Below are positions 7,770-61,281 of a DNA stretch of 64,000 nt, piece after piece. Location of the stretch: IMG/VR virus record IMGVR_UViG_3300033075_000468. The stretch is one strand, 5' to 3'. The notes below the pieces were generated by a model. The model saw nothing but the letters and a program-made list of their open reading frames with translations. It was not told where the DNA came from and did no database searches. Origin of the DNA: a virus. The translations under genes and the position numbers were made by a program. The first letter of the stretch is position 1. The number at the start of each line of letters is the position of its first letter.

Positions 7770-10700
7770 TCTAAATCTCTCCTGACTCGAATCTCTTGAT
7801 CAATTCCACCATCATATCTTATCGTATTACCGATTACGACGACACTTCTCTCAGTAGAGAAGTTAAATCCATCTAGATAGCCAAATAAGATTTTATCTTT
7901 TAGATCTAAATCTAGAATTGCTGTAGTCTTTACTTTCCATTCCGGCACTGGATATTGGAATCTTGCGATCATTCTATCAAGAATAGTCTCTGCGGCTTCT
8001 CTAGTTTGAATGAATGGAGAATCAATCTTAATTTCATTCTTACCATATCTGCGTACTAGATTTGCTAATGTCTTCTCTGGATTGATAATAGTCTCAGTAA
8101 TCACTTCTGATTGCACCTGTACTAATGCTACTCCCGCCACAGCAGTAGCAAATTCTATCTCTATGTCATGTTCTGTATCATCAATATCTCTAGCTGTTTG
8201 TCCTGTTCCTGCTAACCAAGTGTAGTAGTCAGCAATGTTGGCTATAGCTAGCCTACCTGATGCTTGATCATGCTCCCATAGCACTACGTGTGCCTGTTTT
8301 GTAGCTTCTATATCATCATAAGAAAGTACATCTATTGCCGTTACAAACGGGAATCTAATATCCTCTACCGGTGCGTTACTAAACTCCATGTTGAACATGA
8401 CTAGTTCACCTATCTTGGTACCAGCAGTCCAATCCTGTGCCGCTGTATACAATGCCCCCCGTTCTATATCTGTGAAAGCACTATCTGTTCTTGAGTTGTA
8501 CTTAACTACCTCTCCATTGATAACCATTGGATATGGACGCCCGCCACGAATCTCATAAGCAAGCTCGTATAGGAATAGATATCCCCTGTCAGGCCATCCG
8601 TAGTTCGTCAAATTAAATCCAGATTGTCTAGGGGCAGTAGCCACAGTGATTGTACTAGATTCTGCATTTATGTTAGCCCCTAGTGCAGACCACGACAAGA
8701 TTGTTGGTGATGGCGCAGCCCACAAAGAAGTGAGTTTATTTTCTTCTTTAATTATAGGATTTACTTTAACAGTTATCTTATTTGCATAAACTTCTGTTTG
8801 CATGTTGGCACTTATTATATTCGTTGAATAATCTAATAATTTATCTTTAGAAACTGAAGAAGAGAAATCATCATATTCAAAAATATTATCTCTTGTAAAT
8901 CTGAACATAGAGAAACTAACTAGGGCTAGTTCACCAAATAGTTCCCACGGAGTAGATTGCTTTAGATATACCTGATTAATCGTAGTATTATTTCCATTAA
9001 TATTAATTCTTCTTAAAGGAATATCATTCAGAAGAAGTATTTCGATAAGTGGAGCATCAATAAGCGTATCCTTCCAGACCTTGTTCCAATAAGTCATTTG
9101 ATCTTGTAAGAATTTTGAAGCATCTCTACACTGCACTGAGGCTGTCATAGAGCTAGAGTCATTCGACCAAGAATCTGAATAGTAATCTCCAAAATATACT
9201 TCATCCATTACTAGAGTGTCATTATTGAGTTGACTTAGATATATACTAAATCGTGTATTCGCTCCAAGTACGTAACCAGTGTATGGGGCGAATAACTTAT
9301 ACTTTTCACTAATGTTATTAAATGTGATATCAACACTCTTTGCAGCAGTTCTTGGAATTGCTACATTTGATTCATAGAATTCCATATCTTCTTTGATATC
9401 AATTGAAATTACATCTTCTGATATATCTACAATATAAAAAGCATTAAGCTCGCTCAATCTGGCCCAATCATTTGGTCTAGTTGTTGAATATACTGTTGCT
9501 CTAAGTCCTGAGATCTCTATCGCAGAAGAAAAATCATACGTCCAAATGAAATCTTCTGGATTAAATGCTGTGATAAAGTTAGGTGTAGCCAACTGCACCC
9601 ATTGACCATCAGCAGTTAAATATTCTATACCAACAGAATTCATTGGAGCATATCCATACATAAGATTTAGCTGTATTCTATTTACCAATCTAGGAGTTGT
9701 CCATTGGGATTGCACCCATTCTGGAGTAGTAAAGTTTCCTGCTGAATCGCTACGATTCTGGCTCCACCATCCTCTTTCATAGTCTTCGTTATCAAGTGGG
9801 CATGTTCTATACCCCGTACCGTCCGCAGTATCATGCAGTATCGCCCCCGCATCACATACCAGCCACTTCATCGTAAGTTCATTTCTATTATTATAAACAT
9901 CTTCTGGACGCCAGAACTGATAATAACCAGGAGGAATATCTGGATGCTGTCCAGGTATAACTGTACCTGAACCTGGTCCAGTAGTTCCATCCGTAGGAAA
10001 CTGTGCGCCCGCATTTGTAACAACTATATTATCGAATAAGATAGTTCTATTACCTACAAAGTTACCAACTGTGACTCTCTTATATTGTCCACCCTGAACA
10101 GCAAACGTTCCAAGATCAGTGAATCTAAAGAGAATAACATCATAAAATCCCTCAGTAGGAAATTTTAGACTAAATACTTTATCAGATATAAATAAAGGTG
10201 GAGGATCAGAAATATCTATAGAGTCTGCTATAGAAACACTCCTTATGACTCTAGGAGAAGCAGAAAGATCTACACCATTCTCAGCAAATAATGCAGCATT
10301 AATATCTGGCCCAAACTCATCACTAAATGCTACTAATATGCCATACAGCACATCAGAAGTAGCTAATGAACTAATAGGGGTTCCAGAAAGAACACTTGAG
10401 AAATCTACACCTTGCTTTCCAATCACCCATATATCACCAGCAGGCGGTCCTATATCAAATGTAATATCTGTGAATGTAACTGTCTGTAGTGTATTGGGAA
10501 CTGGATCTGGTGACCAAATAAAATCTACACCATTAGTGGGGAAACTACTCCCGTCTGTAAATATAGTGACTGATTTACTTCTTGTACCATTTGGTGCTCC
10601 AGAAATTGTTGCTAGAGCAGCTACAATATATGAGCCAGTAGTGAGATTAAATACTGGAGTTTCTAATGAACTTGTTTGAAGTAAAGTAGTTCCATCAGAC

Positions 10701-55959: not shown

Positions 55960-56382
55960 ATGAGAGATACAGAGCTTTTTAGAGACGTTGCACAATATAT
56001 TCGAGATTATCCTAATGAATATGCTCAGGAATATTGGGCATACGTTGATGAAGATTCATGCTGCACTTACCGCTGTATTCTTGGTACTGGAATTCATTTA
56101 AAGGGTCTTTCTAGAGAATGCTTCGAAAGAAGTGGAGACGGAGAAGTTACCTTCAAGACAGGATTCCTTCCTTTTGTTGATGGTGCTGCAATATTTGGTA
56201 TCTCGAAAGAAGAAGCGAACTTCTTGTTCCACGGGGCTTGGCGTCCCGCTCATGGTCTAGAGGTTGCAGAGGCTCTTGAAAAGCTTGCTGCTGGTGCCCA
56301 TATCAAAGATGTTACTGATATGAGAGGCGAATACTTCGGGGCTGCTGAGGATCTTCGCCCCGAAGAGTCTACGCACTTCTAA
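55960..56382 (+). CDS. Hypothetical protein.
   Basis: ORF of 140 aa with AAAGGAG 6 nt upstream of the ATG. Confidence 0.45.
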   Translation: MRDTELFRDVAQYIRDYPNEYAQEYWAYVDEDSCCTYRCILGTGIHLKGLSRECFERSGDGEVTFKTGFLPFVDGAAIFGISKEEANFLFHGAWRPAHGLEVAEALEKLAAGAHIKDVTDMRGEYFGAAEDLRPEESTHF

Positions 56383-56389
56383 AGGTGTT

Positions 56390-56462
56390 GTCTGCGTAGC
56401 CCAACGGCAGAGGCAACGGACTTAAAATCCGCAAAGTGTGGGTTCGAATCCCACCGTAGACA
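56390..56462 (+). tRNA. Class I tRNA with anticodon TAA (decodes Leu UUA/UUG) and a short variable arm.
   Basis: Hand fold: gtctgcg-ta-gccc-aacggcag-aggc-a-acgga-cttaaaa-tccgc-aaagt-gtggg-ttcgaat-cccac-cgtagac-a. Its anticodon stem is identical to that of tRNA-Arg(TCT) at 53417. Confidence 0.6.
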
Positions 56463-56466
56463 CAGT

Positions 56467-56775
56467 ATGGAATCAAAGTGCGTGCAATACGGATTACCTA
56501 CTGATTACTTCTTCCCGATACCTTTTTCGGGGCGACCAAAAAAGGGAGCAGAAAACAACACTCATGTAGTGCAGTCAGAAATTGCAAAGTTCTGCAACGG
56601 CACAAATGATGGAATAGTTTGTCAGTACAAACAACAATGTTTTGAAATGGGGTTGCACAACAATGAACCAGGCGTTTGGGGAGGAACAACCGAAGCGGAG
56701 AGGGACGTATTTAGATCGAAAATCCGCAAAGGTAATACCATTTCCTACCAACTACCAACCGAAGAAACGGGTTGA
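56467..56775 (+). CDS. WhiB-like (Wbl) protein, divergent.
   Basis: It has PTDYFFP, a Cys cluster C..C-x5-C, and the G[VI]WGG signature (PGVWGGTTEAER). Confidence 0.5.
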   Translation: MESKCVQYGLPTDYFFPIPFSGRPKKGAENNTHVVQSEIAKFCNGTNDGIVCQYKQQCFEMGLHNNEPGVWGGTTEAERDVFRSKIRKGNTISYQLPTEETG

Positions 56776-56858
56776 TTGGGTTGGTGGCTTTCTGATTGCA
56801 TTTGGTGTTATCGAAGTTACTGTGATATATCTTCTTATTAAAAGGTTTAGTTAGTCTC

Positions 56859-56929
56859 GGTCCATTAGTTTATTGGTAAAATCTCGGATTTTCACTCCGA
56901 AGAAGAGAGTTCGATTCTCTCATGGACTA
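56859..56929 (+). tRNA. tRNA-Glu(TTC).
   Basis: Hand fold: ggtccat-ta-gttt-attggta-aaat-c-tcgga-ttttcac-tccga-agaa-gagag-ttcgatt-ctctc-atggact-a. Confidence 0.85.
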
Positions 56930-56953
56930 CTCCTTAGAACAAAGGAAAACAAC

Positions 56954-57097
56954 ATGCAGGTTTCTGATGCCAGAATGAGAGAGATGGGCAAGGATCTTTA
57001 TGCGGTGTCGAGAGATACCACGGTTCCTGAACATCTTCGTCAAAGAGCAGCGGGTCATAGCCAGTTCATCTATGATAAGCTGCATGAGAATAAGTAA
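56954..57097 (+). CDS. Hypothetical small protein.
   Basis: ORF MQVSDARMREMGKDLYAVS..., 47 aa, with AAGGAAA 7 nt upstream of the ATG. The track ORF started inside tRNA-Glu. Confidence 0.3.
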   Translation: MQVSDARMREMGKDLYAVSRDTTVPEHLRQRAAGHSQFIYDKLHENK

Positions 57098-57104
57098 GTA
57101 ATCA

Positions 57105-57165
57105 GGAGAGTTGGCAGAGCGGACTATTGCACTGGTCTTGCTATGTAATAGACGCCAGTATAGTC
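57105..57165 (+). pseudogene. 5-prime fragment of a tRNA-Ser-like gene (acceptor 5-prime strand, D-arm, start of anticodon arm) that continues into a long hairpin.
   Basis: The sequence ggagagttggcagagcggactattgca matches 19 of the first 20 nt of the intact tRNA-Ser at 57532 (ggagagatggcagagcggccaaatgcg). No T-arm or 3-prime acceptor follows, and the nuclease gene starts at 57173. Confidence 0.4.
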
Positions 57166-57172
57166 TACTGGT

Positions 57173-57526
57173 ATGGACTCCCGTACAAAGCTGGGGAGCC
57201 TAGCAGAACTAAAGGTAGCTGCTGAACTATTATCACAAGACTACGAAGTATTCGTTGGTTGGGGTGGGAAAACCACATGTGATTTAGTCGCCATCAAAGA
57301 CTCAGAAATATTGAGAGTTCAGGTCAAAGGAACTGGAACACAAAGTAAGTCTGGAAAATGGATAACGCAACTCAAGTCAGTTAGGTCAAACAGAACAAAG
57401 AACGTTATATATCCTTTCGATTCAACATTGTGTGAAATCGTAGGAATCTATATAGCACCAGAAGATAGAGTAGTTATATTAAGCTCGGAAGAGCTACATG
57501 GTAAAAGTGAAATAAGAATAACATAA
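57173..57526 (+). CDS. PD-(D/E)xK nuclease, Hjc or restriction-endonuclease-like.
   Basis: [30 protein letters not shown] fits the Hjc-type E..D-x-[VI]..K nuclease core. The gene is sandwiched between the tRNA-Ser 5-prime fragment and the intact tRNA-Ser. Confidence 0.55.
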
Positions 57527-57531
57527 TACTT

Positions 57532-57616
57532 GGAGAGATGGCAGAGCGGCCAAATGCGAGCGCCTTGAAAGCGCTAGACTCGAAAGGGTCCGGGGGTTCA
57601 AATCCCTCTCTCTCCG
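57532..57616 (+). tRNA. tRNA-Ser(TGA), class II.
   Basis: Hand fold: ggagaga-tg-gca-gagcggccaaa-tgc-g-agcgc-cttgaaa-gcgct-agactcgaaagggtcc-ggggg-ttcaaat-ccctc-tctctcc-g, 85 nt. Confidence 0.85.
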
Positions 57617-57677
57617 CTGCACATAATAACCGGCCATGACTAGAAAGATGGGCTACCTAAAGGGGTATGTCTGCTAG

Positions 57678-58235
57678 TTGGGGCACGACGAAAGGAATAC
57701 TGTGCTTACACAAGAAATCATTGAACATATGAAGGAATTCTGCCTTAATGAAGATAAGATGCTTTGGCAGATGGGCGACTATCTTAATGAGCACAAGCTG
57801 ACAGACGAGGAAATTGAAAAGCTTGCTGATATCGTTCAGCGCAAAGCTTCTACACTTCGTCAGCGTGAAATGGTGGCAAGAGAATTCCAGCCAGAAGTTC
57901 GTAACTATAATCATGCATGGTCAGTTTATAAAGAACTAATGAGAGTTAAGGGGAAGGATTCCCGCCAAGAACTTCTAGATGGTAGAAATGAATGGACTGT
58001 TGACTCTATGAAGTCGGCAGTAAATGATTTCATTTCATCACAACCTAGTGATGGTTCGGGGCGTAATAGAATAGGTACACCGTTAGGTGGTGCAAGTGCA
58101 GGCATGAGAATTGGCAATATTCTCATTCGTGGCACTGAGCAGAATGGTGAATTAACAATCACCATTGATAAACCATTATCTGATATTCAAACCCTTTCAG
58201 GAAAGCAGTCCACCACTATCATCTGTCATGTCTGA
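57678..58235 (+). CDS. Hypothetical protein. The ORF-track start is a TTG; a GTG at 57702 with AAAGGA upstream is more likely.
   Basis: ORF of about 177-185 aa. Confidence 0.4.
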   Translation: MGHDERNTVLTQEIIEHMKEFCLNEDKMLWQMGDYLNEHKLTDEEIEKLADIVQRKASTLRQREMVAREFQPEVRNYNHAWSVYKELMRVKGKDSRQELLDGRNEWTVDSMKSAVNDFISSQPSDGSGRNRIGTPLGGASAGMRIGNILIRGTEQNGELTITIDKPLSDIQTLSGKQSTTIICHV

Positions 58236-58662
58236 TCATTTCAGTAGCCTAGTAAGAAGTAGAAGGCTTGAATTAGGGCTGACTCAGATAGAATTATCTA
58301 GACAGATGGGTGTGTCTAAAAGTGTTATTGCTAAAATGGAGCAAGGGTTAACTCGTTCTATTTTATCCACCAGAATTCATTTTTTTACTAATCCACCACT
58401 TCTATTTTCTAGAGAAATTGTTGAATCTTGGTGCAGCACTAATAGAGAGTGTTCAATAAAAGGTTGTTCAAAGCCAGCAGAAAAACGTACCGTATGTGGA
58501 ATGCATTACCGCAGATGGCAAAGAGATGGAGATTTGCGTGGGGCAGATAGAGAACGGCCCTCATATGTAGACTCAATCTGCTTGATTGTCGGATGCGGTC
58601 TTAAACCTCATGGGCAAGGGTTATGCGATAAGCACTACATGCAATTCTTAAGAAGTCGATAA
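58228..58662 (+). CDS. HTH (XRE-like) DNA-binding domain fused to a duplicated actinophage-type HNH-like Zn motif.
   Basis: It has LGLTQIELSRQMGVSKSVIAKME (HTH) and two copies of C-x4-GC...[GR]-x-[GV]-x-C-x2-HY-x-[RQ][WF]. The start is trimmed to the internal Met after the overlap. Confidence 0.5.
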   Translation: MSDHFSSLVRSRRLELGLTQIELSRQMGVSKSVIAKMEQGLTRSILSTRIHFFTNPPLLFSREIVESWCSTNRECSIKGCSKPAEKRTVCGMHYRRWQRDGDLRGADRERPSYVDSICLIVGCGLKPHGQGLCDKHYMQFLRSR

Positions 58663-58670
58663 GTAAGGTA

Positions 58671-58749
58671 GGAGGGTATGGCATTGGTTGCACTGGTGAA
58701 AACCAGCGGGTGCTTCGGTGCCCCCAGGGTTCGAATCCCTGGCTCTCCG
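58671..58749 (+). ncRNA. Anticodon-less tRNA-like RNA: tRNA acceptor and T-arm combined with two tetraloop hairpins.
   Basis: It reads ggagggt-at-g-gca-ttggt-tgc-a-[ctggt-GAAA-accag]-c-[gggtgc-TTCG-gtgccc]-c-caggg-ttcgaat-ccctg-gctctcc-g. The acceptor pairs over 7 positions (two G-U). The anticodon position is a GNRA-capped hairpin and the variable position a UUCG-capped hairpin. Confidence 0.45.
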
Positions 58750-58860
58750 CAAACGCATACATGACGGTAGTATGCGGGGAACAAACAAGTCCTAAAATCC
58801 GAAGGCGACACGCACGTGCAATCTGACTGTCGTAAACCAGTAACTTGTTTGTTCCCACCA

Positions 58861-58935
58861 GGCCCATTAGCTCAGTCTGGTTAGAGCACCGGCTTGTCAC
58901 GCCGAAGGTCGCCGGTTCAAATCCGGCATGGGTCG
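58861..58935 (+). tRNA. tRNA-Asp(GTC).
   Basis: Hand fold: ggcccat-ta-gctc-agtctggtta-gagc-a-ccggc-ttgtcac-gccga-aggtc-gccgg-ttcaaat-ccggc-atgggtc-g. Confidence 0.85.
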
Positions 58936-59094
58936 CAATGCACAAGTGGAGTGCTCATAGCGCATGTGATGATAAAGGAAGGCATTCCTCATCCCCGCAG
59001 ATTGGATATTGGTAGATATTTCCAGCAGTGCTACCACACTGAAAGCTGGACCCCACTTGTGCAGTTTCTTACACCTTCAAAAAGGAAAGAGATA

Positions 59095-59373
59095 ATGTCA
59101 AGTTGGTATGACGAAGCAGCCTGTAAGGGAATGGACCCTGAATTGTTCTTCCCGCAAACTAAAGGCATCGTCTCTCACTTCAAAGACCTTAGAAGGAGAT
59201 GTGAAAACTGCACAGTAAGAGATGAGTGTGAAGATCAAGTTATCTCAGAACTCGTCTTCTGTGTAAACATTAGAGAACATAAAGTCGGATTTCGGGCGGG
59301 CATGTCTGAAAAGCGGCTTAAGAATATAGCAATTTCTATCCGCAAGGACAGAGCAAAAGAAAGAGCAGCATGA
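59095..59373 (+). CDS. whiB: WhiB family protein.
   Basis: It has WYDEAACKGMDPELFFP...RCENCTVRDEC, matching the canonical WhiB N-terminus and C-x2-C-x5-C pattern. The start is trimmed, because the track ORF began inside tRNA-Asp. Confidence 0.75.
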   Translation: MSSWYDEAACKGMDPELFFPQTKGIVSHFKDLRRRCENCTVRDECEDQVISELVFCVNIREHKVGFRAGMSEKRLKNIAISIRKDRAKERAA

Positions 59374-59942
59374 AGAAAATCAAATATGTGTTTGTGGCTC
59401 TCGCCGCAGTAATTGGATTACTATTAGTTACTGAACAAGCTGACGCACATCACCCCGAGATTACTGCTGAAGCTGACTGTTCAAATGGGCCTACTTCTGT
59501 TGTTGTGGCTCATGCTGAAGCTTGGCAAACTGACAGTGCAGACCATAGATACAACGACAATATACAAATTGCGTATCGTATTGTTGGCGCTGCAACTGGT
59601 GCTACTGGCGCTAACTTTATCCCGGTGGGGAACGGCAAATTTCTCCCCGCCAACGGCTATAAGTTCTCGCTTGCATTCAGTGTGCCATCATCTGCCAAAC
59701 AAATTGTTGTCAGAGCTACAGCATTGTCAAGTTGGGGACCGAATCAAGAATTCCAGGGTGACTCTGACTTCAGAGAAGTTACAGTTGATCTTCCCCTGAA
59801 TTGTAATGACGTGGTGGAAACCACCACTACTGCCCCTACATCAAATACCGTGGAGAAACAAACAACTACCACTATTACGATTGCATCAACAACTATTCCT
59901 CCCGCAGACACAATTATCCGTCAACCTAGATTCACAGGGTGA
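59370..59942 (+). CDS. Secreted protein with a signal peptide and a Thr-rich C-terminus.
   Basis: It begins MKKIKYVFVALAAVIGLLLVTEQADA and ends in a TTTAPTSNTVEKQTTTTITIASTTIPP linker. Confidence 0.5.
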   Translation: MKKIKYVFVALAAVIGLLLVTEQADAHHPEITAEADCSNGPTSVVVAHAEAWQTDSADHRYNDNIQIAYRIVGAATGATGANFIPVGNGKFLPANGYKFSLAFSVPSSAKQIVVRATALSSWGPNQEFQGDSDFREVTVDLPLNCNDVVETTTTAPTSNTVEKQTTTTITIASTTIPPADTIIRQPRFTG

Positions 59943-59945
59943 TAA

Positions 59946-60932
59946 ATGTTTTTCTTCTTTATTCTGGCAGTCATAGCATTGCTCATTTCGTGGGTGATGC
60001 TGGGCTTCTCATTCCTCACGAAGAATGCTGCTGAGAAAAAGTCATCATTTGCTGGCTCTTTCGTGGTGTTCTTCATAGCACTGGTGCTTGGATTCATTTC
60101 ATGCATCAGAATTGTTCCTGCTAATAGCGTCGGCATTCCTGTGACGTTTGGCTCAATTGGAAAGTCAGTTGATTCAGGGTTCCACCTGACTTCTCCGTTT
60201 ACGAAGATTCATACCTTCTCAACTCGGCTTCAAGAGTCGTCAATGATTGGTGATCCCACTGAAGGTGATCGCAAGACTGATGATGCGGTTGATGTTCGTG
60301 GTTCAGATGAAGGTGTTGTGTATCTTGATGTTACCATTAGATATACGGTTTCTGAAGGAACGGCTTCAGAGCTTTTCAAGCGCACGGGTTCGATGGAAGG
60401 TATTCGGGAGAAGATCATTCGCCCCGATGCTCGTTCCATTCTGAGAGATGTGTCGAAGAACTTCATTTCATCTGATCTTGTTGCTGCTAAGCGTAGCGAT
60501 GTTGAAAAGCAGGCTTCTGATATTCTAAAGCAGAGAATGAAGGATGCCTACGGCATCAACATTGACGCTGTGCTTTTGCGTGGTGTTAGACCTTCTGATC
60601 AAGTGGAGAAGGCTATCCAGGCTAAGCTTACTAAGCAACAGGAAGTTGAGCAGGCACTTCTGCAACAGCAGAAAGAGTCAACTGAAGCTGATACCCGTAA
60701 GAAGGTTGCTGCTACAGATGCCGAAACTGCTAAGACTGCTGCTCAAGGTAAGGCTGATGCTGCCCGCATTGAAGCACAGGGTACTGCTGATGCAAACGCT
60801 AAACTTTCTCAGTCTCTTACTCCCGAGATTCTACAGAAGTTGAAGACTGAAGCGCTCAAGAATGGCACGGTGTATGTCGTGCCGGATGGAGCTAACTTCA
60901 TTCTTGGGGATCTGACTACCGCTAAGAAGTAG
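59946..60932 (+). CDS. SPFH/band-7 (stomatin/prohibitin-like) membrane protein.
   Basis: N-terminal transmembrane segment followed by an SPFH-like core (VPANSVGIPVTFGSIGK...YLDVTIRYTV) and a C-terminal Ala/Lys/Glu coiled coil. Confidence 0.7.
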   Translation: MFFFFILAVIALLISWVMLGFSFLTKNAAEKKSSFAGSFVVFFIALVLGFISCIRIVPANSVGIPVTFGSIGKSVDSGFHLTSPFTKIHTFSTRLQESSMIGDPTEGDRKTDDAVDVRGSDEGVVYLDVTIRYTVSEGTASELFKRTGSMEGIREKIIRPDARSILRDVSKNFISSDLVAAKRSDVEKQASDILKQRMKDAYGINIDAVLLRGVRPSDQVEKAIQAKLTKQQEVEQALLQQQKESTEADTRKKVAATDAETAKTAAQGKADAARIEAQGTADANAKLSQSLTPEILQKLKTEALKNGTVYVVPDGANFILGDLTTAKK

Positions 60933-60945
60933 TCTAAAAGCTAAT

Positions 60946-61281
60946 ATGAATAGTGAACAATTACATTGGGTAGCAGGCTTGCTTGAGGGCGAAGGCTGCT
61001 TTCAGATAACAAAAACATCTCCTAAAAAAGATGGCAGTGAAGTTTATAGCCACCTTTCAGTAACAGTAAATATGGGAGATGAAGATATTGTTAGGAGATT
61101 AAAGGAATATATAGGATATGGCAATATTCAAGGGCCATATCTTCCTAAAAAATCTCACTGGACACCAATGTGGCGGTTTGCTGTTCAGAAAGATAGTGAC
61201 GCTAGGAAACTAATGCAAGATGTTCTTCCGCTGATGGGGAAGAGACGTTCAGCCAAAATAAAAGAACTTCTTGATTCTTAG
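60946..61281 (+). CDS. Free-standing LAGLIDADG homing endonuclease (single-motif type).
   Basis: It carries WVAGLLEGEGCF, a LAGLIDADG block, and is 111 aa. It lies immediately upstream of tRNA-His. Confidence 0.7.
   Translation: MNSEQLHWVAGLLEGEGCFQITKTSPKKDGSEVYSHLSVTVNMGDEDIVRRLKEYIGYGNIQGPYLPKKSHWTPMWRFAVQKDSDARKLMQDVLPLMGKRRSAKIKELLDS

Follow-up and report, generated by a model that had tools for sequence, protein, structure and literature searches.

Mobile DNA that targets transfer RNA (tRNA) genes leaves partial tRNA copies behind, as when integrative elements cross over in the anticodon loop. In phage T4, SegB is a free-standing homing endonuclease encoded within a tRNA cluster, where it recognizes tRNA-gene sequence and drives the inheritance of itself and of neighboring tRNA genes (PMC2330249), and the F-Tfl HNH enzymes of T5 have been named as a main source of differences among T5-like genomes (PMC10644984). 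The gene for I-Ssp6803I lies in a group I intron within the anticodon loop of the Synechocystis initiator tRNA (tRNA-fMet) gene (PMC11622646); PF11645/2ost is the corresponding 'ssp6803i' family of homing endonucleases, with a 17-base-pair (bp) target (PMC3424549). Here, we describe a tRNA-shaped element of 79 nucleotides (nt) at positions 58671–58749 in a 64,000-nt stretch of DNA from an uncultured phage (IMG/VR record IMGVR_UViG_3300033075_000468; this whole stretch is called the window). The element is almost certainly the downstream remnant of the phage's own tRNA-Ser(UGA) gene, which an endonuclease cassette has split, and is probably a by-product of the homing of that endonuclease cassette, with no dedicated role.

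The evidence for this origin comes from a cassette-free allele of the same phage species. This allele lies on L093, a 2313-nt contig of an activated-sludge assembly, which we found by an exact-protein look-up with an open reading frame (ORF) of 47 amino acids (aa). Nucleotides 1–2137 of L093 match window positions 55004–57140 with 2 mismatches (99.9% identity), and nucleotides 2124–2313 match window positions 58688–58874 apart from three extra bases, CTT. The gene is uninterrupted in L093, where it reads GGAGAGTTGGCAGAGCGGACTATTGCACTGGTCTTGAAAACCAGCGGGTGCTTCGGTGCCCCCAGGGTTCGAATCCCTGGCTCTCCG and is called by ARAGORN as tRNA-Ser(tga) at L093 2102–2189. L093 is not the product of a collapsed cassette-allele assembly: it has a junction, GGTCTTGAAAACC, that occurs nowhere in that allele. 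The uninterrupted allele is seen in run DRR046817, and in run DRR236222 the contig stops right at the junction. Read against L093, the window is the same gene plus a 1558-nt insertion after U34 (CTT|GAAA), between U34 and G35 to within 1 nt, as G57140 can be assigned to either side of the junction. By the same alignment, the GAAA loop of the element is the anticodon loop CUUGAAA minus CUU, left at the insertion junction. The parts of the locus are as follows.

57105–57139, plus strand: orphan 5′ half (positions 1–34) of the disrupted tRNA-Ser(UGA) gene, GGAGAGTTGGCAGAGCGGACTATTGCACTGGTCTT, identical to L093 2102–2136
57140–58697, plus strand: cassette insertion, 1558 nt, absent from L093, flanked by the direct repeat TTGCACTGGT(CTT)G / TTGCACTGGTG
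57173–57526, plus strand: gene for a 117-aa PD-(D/E)XK homing endonuclease, I-Ssp6803I family (Pfam PF11645 PDDEXK_5, E = 3.2e-14)
57532–57617, plus strand: intact replacement tRNA-Ser(UGA) gene inside the insertion (ARAGORN; Rfam tRNA, 55.4 bits)
57702–58235, plus strand: orphan ORF of 177 aa, with no Pfam or PHROG match
58228–58662, plus strand: ORF of 144 aa with HTH and HNH-like (Cys-rich) parts, the last gene of the insertion (Pfam HTH_3, E = 8.7e-8)
58671–58697, plus strand: pseudo-5′ half, GGAGGGTATGGCATTGGTTGCACTGGT, the 27 nt with which the insertion ends; diverged from tRNA-Ser positions 1–31, of which it is a copy
58698–58749, plus strand: native 3′ half of the disrupted tRNA-Ser(UGA) gene, G35 to G73, 100% identical to L093 2137–2189
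58671–58749, plus strand: the element, an anticodon-less mini-tRNA and chimera of the pseudo-5′ half and the native 3′ half (from sequence, Rfam and folding)

The locus has the marks of an insertion remnant: an uninterrupted allele in a near-identical genome, two halves of the gene on either side of an insert, homing-endonuclease-type genes in that insert (PF11645, 2OST, and PHROG HNH matches), and a replacement tRNA gene within it. The orphan 5′ half terminates at ...CTGGTCTT, which is exactly the CTT that the element lacks, and 35 of 36 nt at this site are identical to the 5′ half of tRNA-Ser(tga) in a distant relative, the 135-kb contig L015. The native 3′ half runs from the GAAA loop remnant through the 3′ strand of the anticodon stem, the variable arm (GGGTGC-TTCG-GTGCCC), and the T arm to the acceptor stem's 3′ strand and a discriminator G. 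Its 52 nt carry no mutation with respect to the intact allele, and its T arm and acceptor strand are also identical to those of the L015 tRNA-Ser.

From 5′ to 3′, the element begins with the acceptor strand GGAGGGU and the linker AUG, continues through a minimal D arm (a 3-bp stem, GCA/UGC, and a 5-nt loop, UUGGU, which still contains GG) and a single A to a 5-bp stem, CUGGU/ACCAG, that is closed by a U-A pair and capped by the 4-nt GAAA loop, and then, after a C, enters a 6-bp long arm (GGGUGC/GUGCCC, with two G·U pairs and a cUUCGg cap). After a further C come a perfect T arm (CAGGG-UUCGAAU-CCCUG, a 5-bp stem with a GTTCGAATC-type loop), the acceptor strand GCUCUCC, and a discriminator G; CCA is not encoded. 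The acceptor stem has 7 bp, including two G·U pairs, and the whole can be drawn as a cloverleaf in which the acceptor and T stems have the 7/5 geometry (a 12-bp minihelix) of canonical tRNAs. Every helix listed in an earlier description made from the letters alone (the sequence-only reading) is therefore present, and we agree with that reading that an element whose anticodon arm ends in four nucleotides, instead of a 7-nt loop with a triplet, has no anticodon and cannot decode. Its placement of the element in a tRNA island is also correct, between the HTH/HNH-like ORF (stop at 58662, 8 nt before the 5′ end of the element) and tRNA-Asp (58861–58936).

The same reading went further and proposed a dedicated tRNA mimic or decoy, with two tetraloops set on a tRNA scaffold and the UUCG hairpin standing in place of the variable arm. 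Comparison with intact genes does not bear this out. As a blastn query against deposited phages, the element alone matched annotated tRNA-Ser genes in their 3′ halves, one case being 84% over 44 nt in Vibrio phages, and the element is therefore a derivative of a class II tRNA, with a long variable arm, in which the UUCG hairpin is that arm. In the intact L093 allele, the anticodon stem, both the variable and the T arm, and the acceptor 3′ strand have exactly the sequence seen in the element; by this correspondence, the UUCG hairpin is an ordinary part of a class II tRNA-Ser, namely its native long variable arm, and the other tetraloop is the CUUGAAA remnant at the insertion junction. Descent from tRNA-Ser agrees with the homology, the long variable arm, G73, and the pairs G1-C72 and G2-C71.

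Distant relatives, found via a 190-aa protein encoded downstream of the element, have the same gene in its normal form. These relatives (75–86% nt identity) share the order tRNA-Glu, small ORF, tRNA-Ser(tga), (tRNA-Cys), tRNA-Asp, WhiB; in L015 it is tRNA-Glu(ttc), 47-aa ORF, tRNA-Ser(tga), tRNA-Cys, spacer, tRNA-Asp, WhiB. The contigs L015, L016, and L021 each have a normal tRNA-Ser(UGA) at the syntenic site, and the spacer 3′ of the element aligns with the sequence that separates tRNA-Ser from tRNA-Asp in L016. Over 68 nt, the element and the L015 tRNA-Ser share 82% identity, and the D stem GCA/UGC, anticodon stem CUGGU/ACCAG, T arm, and acceptor 3′ strand are the same in both, whereas the anticodon loop is CTTGAAA in L015 and GAAA in the element. 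The element itself is present in nine contigs from other samples, all 100% identical across it. Activated-sludge samples that contain these contigs include the SRR12487046 and SRR32380191 series. The sequence-only reading had held that lack of conservation and covariation in homologous phages would count against its proposal, and this is largely what these comparisons give: normal tRNA-Ser(UGA) genes in L015, L016, L021, and L093, and a single form of the element in the nine carriers.

Standard tRNA searches pass over the element. ARAGORN called 22 tRNAs and no tmRNA in the window, and the element was not among them. Rfam was run on the whole window at gathering score and on 58560–58870 and 57060–58780 at E-value thresholds; at gathering score it placed 19 tRNAs in the window and none at the element, and the general tRNA family (RF00005) was silent there even at E ≤ 10. 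The best Rfam match to the element was tRNA-Sec (RF01852), at 25.7 bits against a gathering score of 47, and the relaxed scans of the two regions returned only this sub-threshold match, a plastid-UTR family (antisense, tRNA-like), and mascRNA, with no tmRNA, YrlA, or intron. The covariance-model scan that the sequence-only reading had suggested thus yielded no match to tRNA, tmRNA, or YrlA, and a resemblance to tRNA-Sec that stayed below threshold. We rejected an assignment as tRNA-Sec, given this score, the 7/5 geometry in place of 8/5 or 9/4, and the absence of a UCA anticodon. An assignment as the tRNA-like domain of a tmRNA was also rejected: the element has A3-U70 instead of the G3·U70 of alanine identity, and ARAGORN finds no tmRNA.

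The structure was modeled, as the sequence-only reading had also suggested. The element folds more stably than shuffled sequences (z = –3.08), but the predicted optimum is rod-like (–39.3 kcal/mol), with the D region paired to the 3′ strand of the long arm, and the cloverleaf, at –37.1 to –37.6 kcal/mol, lies 1.7–2.2 kcal/mol above this optimum. Only the acceptor/T minihelix is predicted with high pair probability (at least 0.99, save for the terminal U7·G66 pair). The tRNA-like resemblance is, by these comparisons, far beyond chance, because the element is homologous to real tRNA-Ser(UGA) genes and folds better than shuffled sequences. A longer protein-coding gene around the element, which the sequence-only reading had said would refute its proposal, was not found. 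No gene is called across it on related contigs, and the ORFs that cover it are all on the minus strand, the longest also spanning tRNA-Asp; these are not credible as genes. A scan of 56700–59400 for promoters and terminators gave nothing above shuffle expectation.

Only cassette-bearing genomes of a single phage species have the truncated-loop form, and scans of viral (IMG/VR), metagenome (JGI), and genome (GTDB) collections revealed no second lineage with a truncated loop. The pattern TGGTGAAAACCA...GGTTCGAATCC had 2 matches in IMG/VR, both unrelated, and a looser pattern had 53 matches in JGI metagenomes and 21 in GTDB genomes, none of them homologous. A search of IMG/VR for GCACTGGT N0-3 GAAAACCAGCGG returned ten tRNA-Ser genes, all with full 7-nt loops and sharing a GCACTGGT-CTTGAAA/TTCGAAA-ACCAGCGG anticodon arm. 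An exact search with the 41-nt 3′ half found nothing in either IMG/VR or GTDB. About half of the matches to the looser pattern were intron-like inserts in tRNA genes, in which the intron end and 3′ exon happen to read GGTG|AAAACCA. Conserved inserts of this kind, ~250–300 nt long, occur at L097 2359–2685, in L032, L046, and L064, and at ~20 other loci from the pattern scans. They end in ...GGUG directly before AAAACCA..., behind which come a T arm, then an acceptor strand, and in many cases CCA, and they contain words such as GUAGAGACU..ACGG and AGUCCAGACCAC. We take these inserts to resemble the group I introns of tRNA-Leu(UAA) genes; in the seven loci tested, Rfam at gathering score found nothing on them.

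The insertion encodes three proteins and a tRNA, which leave only ~150 nt of non-coding sequence. The 117-aa PD-(D/E)XK protein has 2OST as its best match in the PDB (E = 1.1e-3), a weak match at 22 bits. Endonuclease family and insertion position together match a known tRNA-gene homing system, because the protein belongs to the PF11645/2OST family and the insertion is at the same kind of site as the I-Ssp6803I intron. A perfect 6-bp hairpin, CCAGUA-UAGUC-UACUGG (57144–57172), ends 1 nt before the ATG of this gene; translation-limiting hairpins are known at other phage homing endonuclease genes (PMC3014915). The replacement tRNA-Ser(UGA) retains the loop CTTGAAA and differs from the disrupted gene at 8 of 10 anticodon-stem positions, with a stem of the GCGCC/GGCGC type and an unlike variable arm. 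No homologs of the 177-aa ORF were found beyond its own 90% cluster, and neither Pfam nor PHROG has a family that matches it. The C-terminal half of the HTH/HNH-like protein matches PHROG families of HNH endonucleases (phrog_5351 at 2e-11, residues 91–161 of a 165-aa reading), and this protein has no homologs outside its own cluster. Relatives carry other endonuclease genes at tRNA borders, including an Endonuclease_7-type gene between tRNA-Glu and tRNA-Ser (L016 391–828 and L021 642–1079) and a second PF11645 gene, 4 nt after tRNA-Tyr (L016 8400–8732); no split tRNA was seen at these endonuclease/tRNA borders.

The insertion ends in the pseudo-5′ half, which provides an acceptor 5′ strand, a mini D arm, and an anticodon-stem 5′ strand for pairing with the native 3′ half. 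The copy reaches 9 nt further upstream (ATAAGTAAG), as supported by a local alignment with p ~0.026 against shuffles, besides an exact 10-nt repeat. Compared with the genuine 5′ half, A5 has become G, which still pairs with U68 as G·U; an extra A between positions 7 and 8 lengthens the 7/10 linker by 1 nt; the D loop has shrunk from 11 to 5 nt with its GG kept; and the D stem and anticodon-stem strand are unchanged.

We infer that, during co-infection, one of the cassette's endonucleases cleaves uninterrupted tRNA-Ser(UGA) alleles at or close to the anticodon loop and that repair then copies the cassette into the cut allele. The carrier would be immune, because no intact site remains in its genome: one copy of the target is truncated after CTT(G), another has a 3-bp spacing deletion, and the replacement tRNA gene is divergent in its stem. 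The replacement tRNA would take over decoding of UCN codons. The pseudo-5′ half pairs with the native 3′ half and restores a cloverleaf with a GAAA loop, and the resulting mini-tRNA is probably still excised from the operon transcript by RNase P and 3′ processing, because the 12-bp acceptor/T minihelix is kept. Given the substrate requirements of RNase P and of the enzyme that adds CCA, an element with such a minihelix could still be processed. YrlA offers an example of such processing. Charging with serine is conceivable too, as the element keeps serine-identity features, although its abnormal D arm speaks against this. The element can be explained with no dedicated trans-acting role.

Several points weigh against a by-product without function. 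Cleavage by the nuclease and resistance of the carrier are predictions, the sequence showing only that the carrier has no intact target left. The nine element-bearing contigs are identical over the element, so that covariation is unreadable and neither decay nor conservation can be measured. In the pseudo-5′ half, only 1 of 18 stem nucleotides has changed, in a way that keeps the pair, as compared with heavy change in the linker, D loop, and upstream flank; per nucleotide, this pattern looks like selection for the fold. Moreover, with flanks that are 99.9% identical between the two alleles, the pseudo-5′ half did not arise by recent duplication and divergence in place; it came with the cassette, and such an arrival hints that it is a maintained part of the cassette. 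We nevertheless regard a retained role at the RNA level as doubtful. The fullest version of such a role, in which the pseudo-5′ half is a selected cassette component that re-caps the 3′ half of the destroyed gene into a processed, CCA-bearing, possibly serylated, functional mini-tRNA, seems unlikely to us; if it were true, the roles would be to stabilize or terminate the endonuclease mRNA, to insulate the replacement tRNA against mispairing, or to titrate a tRNA-binding factor, and re-capping would give intron-less selfish DNA a new way to inhabit an RNA gene. In a cis-acting form, the pseudo-5′ half would be kept to fold the orphaned 3′ half into a tRNA-like structure whose RNase P or 3′-processing site defines and stabilizes the 3′ end of the endonuclease mRNA, and which also keeps the 3′ half from pairing wrongly with either the orphan 5′ half or the replacement tRNA-Ser (complementary acceptor strand GGAGAG). 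The conserved stems, the arrival with the cassette, the predicted pair probabilities of the minihelix, and the start of the element so close behind the HNH-like stop codon all suit this idea, the main rival, but we consider it quite unlikely: there is a single version of the sequence and hence no covariation, the cloverleaf is not the predicted optimum, and the orphan 5′ half stays uncapped, which would leave insulation incomplete. Counted per mutational event, moreover, the non-stem changes may number only three, and the contrast with the stems is not significant (about 0.1, our own estimate); as a sign of selection, it is a hint only. A trans-acting, non-decoding mimic of tRNA-Ser, which would be processed, CCA-tailed, and perhaps serylated and would serve as a decoy or sponge for nucleases that target tRNAs or enzymes that bind them, or as a seryl donor outside translation, is less credible again, and we judge it very unlikely. 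The element does keep serine-identity features (the long variable arm, G1-C72, G2-C71, G30-C40, and G73) as well as an intact T arm and the GG of the D loop, bacterial serine identity is independent of the anticodon and depends on listed features of this kind (PMC9976931), and there is precedent in phage tRNAs that counter tRNA-cleaving defenses, according to work cited in PMC10644984. However, E. coli seryl-tRNA synthetase reads tertiary shape (PMC9976931), and the D arm of the element, with its 5-nt loop and extra linker nucleotide, is far from canonical; an anticodon nuclease requires the very loop that is absent; and the form occurs only where the cassette split the gene, with normal tRNAs in relatives and in the conspecific allele and no short-loop homolog in IMG/VR, the JGI metagenome set, or GTDB genomes.

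Two further accounts change the origin of the element instead of its role. If the 1558 nt were an intron, the gene halves would be spliced into tRNA-Ser(UGA), and the element would be an intron end folded onto the 3′ exon. The U34|G35 site is where group I introns interrupt bacterial tRNA genes, the endonuclease family is that of the Synechocystis tRNA-fMet intron, and the 1-nt ambiguity permits an insert that ends in G. Reading a terminal G, however, places the 5′ splice site after G instead of U, and the two requirements cannot be satisfied together. Rfam finds no intron family in 57060–58780 even at E ≤ 5, a profile built from 26 intron-like tRNA inserts of the pattern scans matches only the seeded motif in the cassette, which contains none of the core words AGAGACT, GACGG, CCGAG, and GGGAAAC, the three ORFs and the tRNA leave only ~150 nt of non-coding sequence, and a tRNA-Ser(UGA) gene carried in the cassette would be superfluous to an intron. 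We therefore rejected a group I intron in the cassette, for which neither a ribozyme core nor consistent splice sites were found, and consider splicing highly improbable. Least probable of all is a plain tRNA pseudogene that decayed in place through point mutations and small deletions unrelated to the endonuclease genes. A redundant tRNA-Ser(UGA) 1.1 kb upstream would permit such decay, but the gene's true 5′ half lies 1.56 kb upstream and stops precisely at the CTT that is missing from the element, the insertion is the only difference between the window and the cassette-free allele, and the 3′ 52 nt are free of mutations; the upstream 5′ half and the comparison with L093 refute it.

With the element taken as a by-product of homing, the case for a tRNA mimic deflates: a presence/absence polymorphism, legible base by base, accounts for the odd RNA. 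The remaining interest lies in a cassette with an I-Ssp6803I-family endonuclease at the classic site of tRNA introns (the anticodon loop, 34/35) in which no ribozyme is detected; lacking one, the cassette would therefore kill the gene, and it carries a divergent replacement tRNA with the same anticodon instead. The locus offers a clean natural example of selfish endonucleases remodeling phage tRNA islands, shows one source of non-canonical "tRNA-like" genes in phage annotations, and provides a concrete predicted target sequence for an uncharacterized homing endonuclease.

The window has ~43% G+C, with structural genes on the minus strand and a tRNA island on the plus strand that extends from ~49.6 kb to the window end. 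By Pfam, genes near the element encode WhiB, an SPFH protein, a LAGLIDADG protein, the PD-(D/E)XK protein, and the HTH protein. No close relative was found among deposited phages: megablast returned nothing, and blastn returned only tRNA-Asp and 3′ halves of tRNA-Ser genes. A gene annotated 'tRNA-OTHER' in Streptomyces phage pSt2308 was considered as a counterpart and turned out to be a normal tRNA-Ser(GCU).

Elsewhere in the island, positions 55898–55935 are identical (38/38 nt) to the 3′ half, positions 39–76, of an L015-type tRNA-Ile(UAU) gene (L015 7921–7996). This half-copy begins 5 nt downstream of a different, intact tRNA-Ile(tat) gene (55819–55893), and its breakpoint is again at the edge of the anticodon loop; it is a second half-gene scar of tRNA gene replacement and supports recurrent replacement in the island. 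Positions 56298–56464, which span tRNA-Leu(taa) (56390–56463), have 17–25 clustered substitutions in contigs L094 and L095, restricted to that gene and its upstream flank, which suggests within-species allele replacement of another tRNA gene. At the 3′ end of the SPFH gene (60588–60920), the conspecific contigs L006, L008, L009, and L011 differ by more than 50 substitutions and are ~100% identical elsewhere. This patch stops at the LAGLIDADG gene (ORF 60946–61281) and looks like a recombination or co-conversion tract beside a homing endonuclease gene. Another tRNA-like gene that ARAGORN does not call lies at 53634–53726. Its acceptor stem is GGCGGGG/CCCCGCC and its T arm is GUGAG-UUCGAAU-CUCAC, and the 'anticodon' arm is long and irregular, with CUCAUAA inside an 11-nt loop. 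This gene scores 26.3 bits against Rfam tRNA-Sec (gathering score 47), and its ends are identical to those of an 82-nt gene at L015 6647–6728, called by ARAGORN as tRNA-Thr(agt), whereas the middle differs. The spacers on either side of tRNA-Asp (58750–58860 and 58937–59070) are closed by long perfect stems (GGGAACAAACAAGU...ACUUGUUUGUUCCC and GCACAAGUGG...CCACUUGUGC) and fold well below shuffled sequences (z = –4.25 and –3.44, respectively), and the L015 spacer at 9332–9472 has another sequence and a similar closing stem. Folding predictions would allow these flanking spacers to be processed, structured RNAs of the tRNA operon.

Among RNAs, the nearest comparison is with class II tRNA-Ser(UGA), to which the element is homologous by descent and from which it departs in its anticodon loop (4 nt, GAAA, versus 7, CUUGAAA), in its D loop and linker, and in failing ARAGORN and the Rfam tRNA family, while sharing the 52 nt of its 3′ part with the intact allele. 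Like YrlA Y RNA, the tRNA-like domain of tmRNA, and mascRNA, it is a tRNA-shaped acceptor/T-arm unit without a usable anticodon. Its match to mascRNA reaches just 16 bits, where the gathering score is 42.5. The YrlA of M. smegmatis is cut by RNase P and receives CCA, and in YrlA the 'acceptor' is loop-closed, the ends of the RNA lie in a Ro-binding stem, and a GNCGAAN0-1G motif is present (PMC4201824). The element, by contrast, has open acceptor ends and no Ro-binding stem, and its topology is the opposite. We rejected a reading of the element as a YrlA or Y RNA module on the grounds of this reversed topology and the absence of an Rfam match; the TROVE gene of the relatives is ~8.5 kb downstream. 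That gene encodes a 545-aa TROVE/Ro60 protein (L015 18465–20102, and also in L016, L017, and L018), ~8.5 kb downstream of a 184-aa gene, and the corresponding locus would fall past the 3′ end of the window. A phage Y RNA may lie near it, by analogy, because Ro60 partners with Y RNAs that hold tRNA-like modules. The same relatives encode an RF-1 domain protein, NAMPT/NAPRTase, and an HD_4 protein.

Among mobile elements, the cassette shares with tRNA-targeting integrative elements the interruption at the anticodon loop, the half-gene copies, and short direct repeats at its borders. Unlike them, it has no integrase, does not reconstitute the gene with a 3′-half copy of its own, and brings a whole, different tRNA gene, leaving the remaining 3′ half paired with a degenerate 5′ half. 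Like T4 SegB and the T5 F-Tfl HNH enzymes, its endonuclease genes lie among phage tRNA genes, and the cassette is polymorphic between near-identical genomes and carries a tRNA gene. In contrast to SegB and F-Tfl, it sits inside a tRNA gene, which it destroys, rather than between genes. A divergent isoacceptor copy makes up for the loss, and a half-gene, re-capped, is left behind; the nucleases also differ in family, being PD-(D/E)XK and, by prediction, HNH-like in the cassette versus GIY-YIG for SegB. The I-Ssp6803I intron of the Synechocystis tRNA-fMet gene shares both the endonuclease family and insertion in a tRNA anticodon loop. In the cassette, however, the disrupted gene would not be restored by splicing, because no ribozyme is detectable, and a second tRNA gene supplies the function. 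A homing-endonuclease cassette at the position of a tRNA intron, intron-less and equipped with a spare tRNA, is a variation on these known homing systems.

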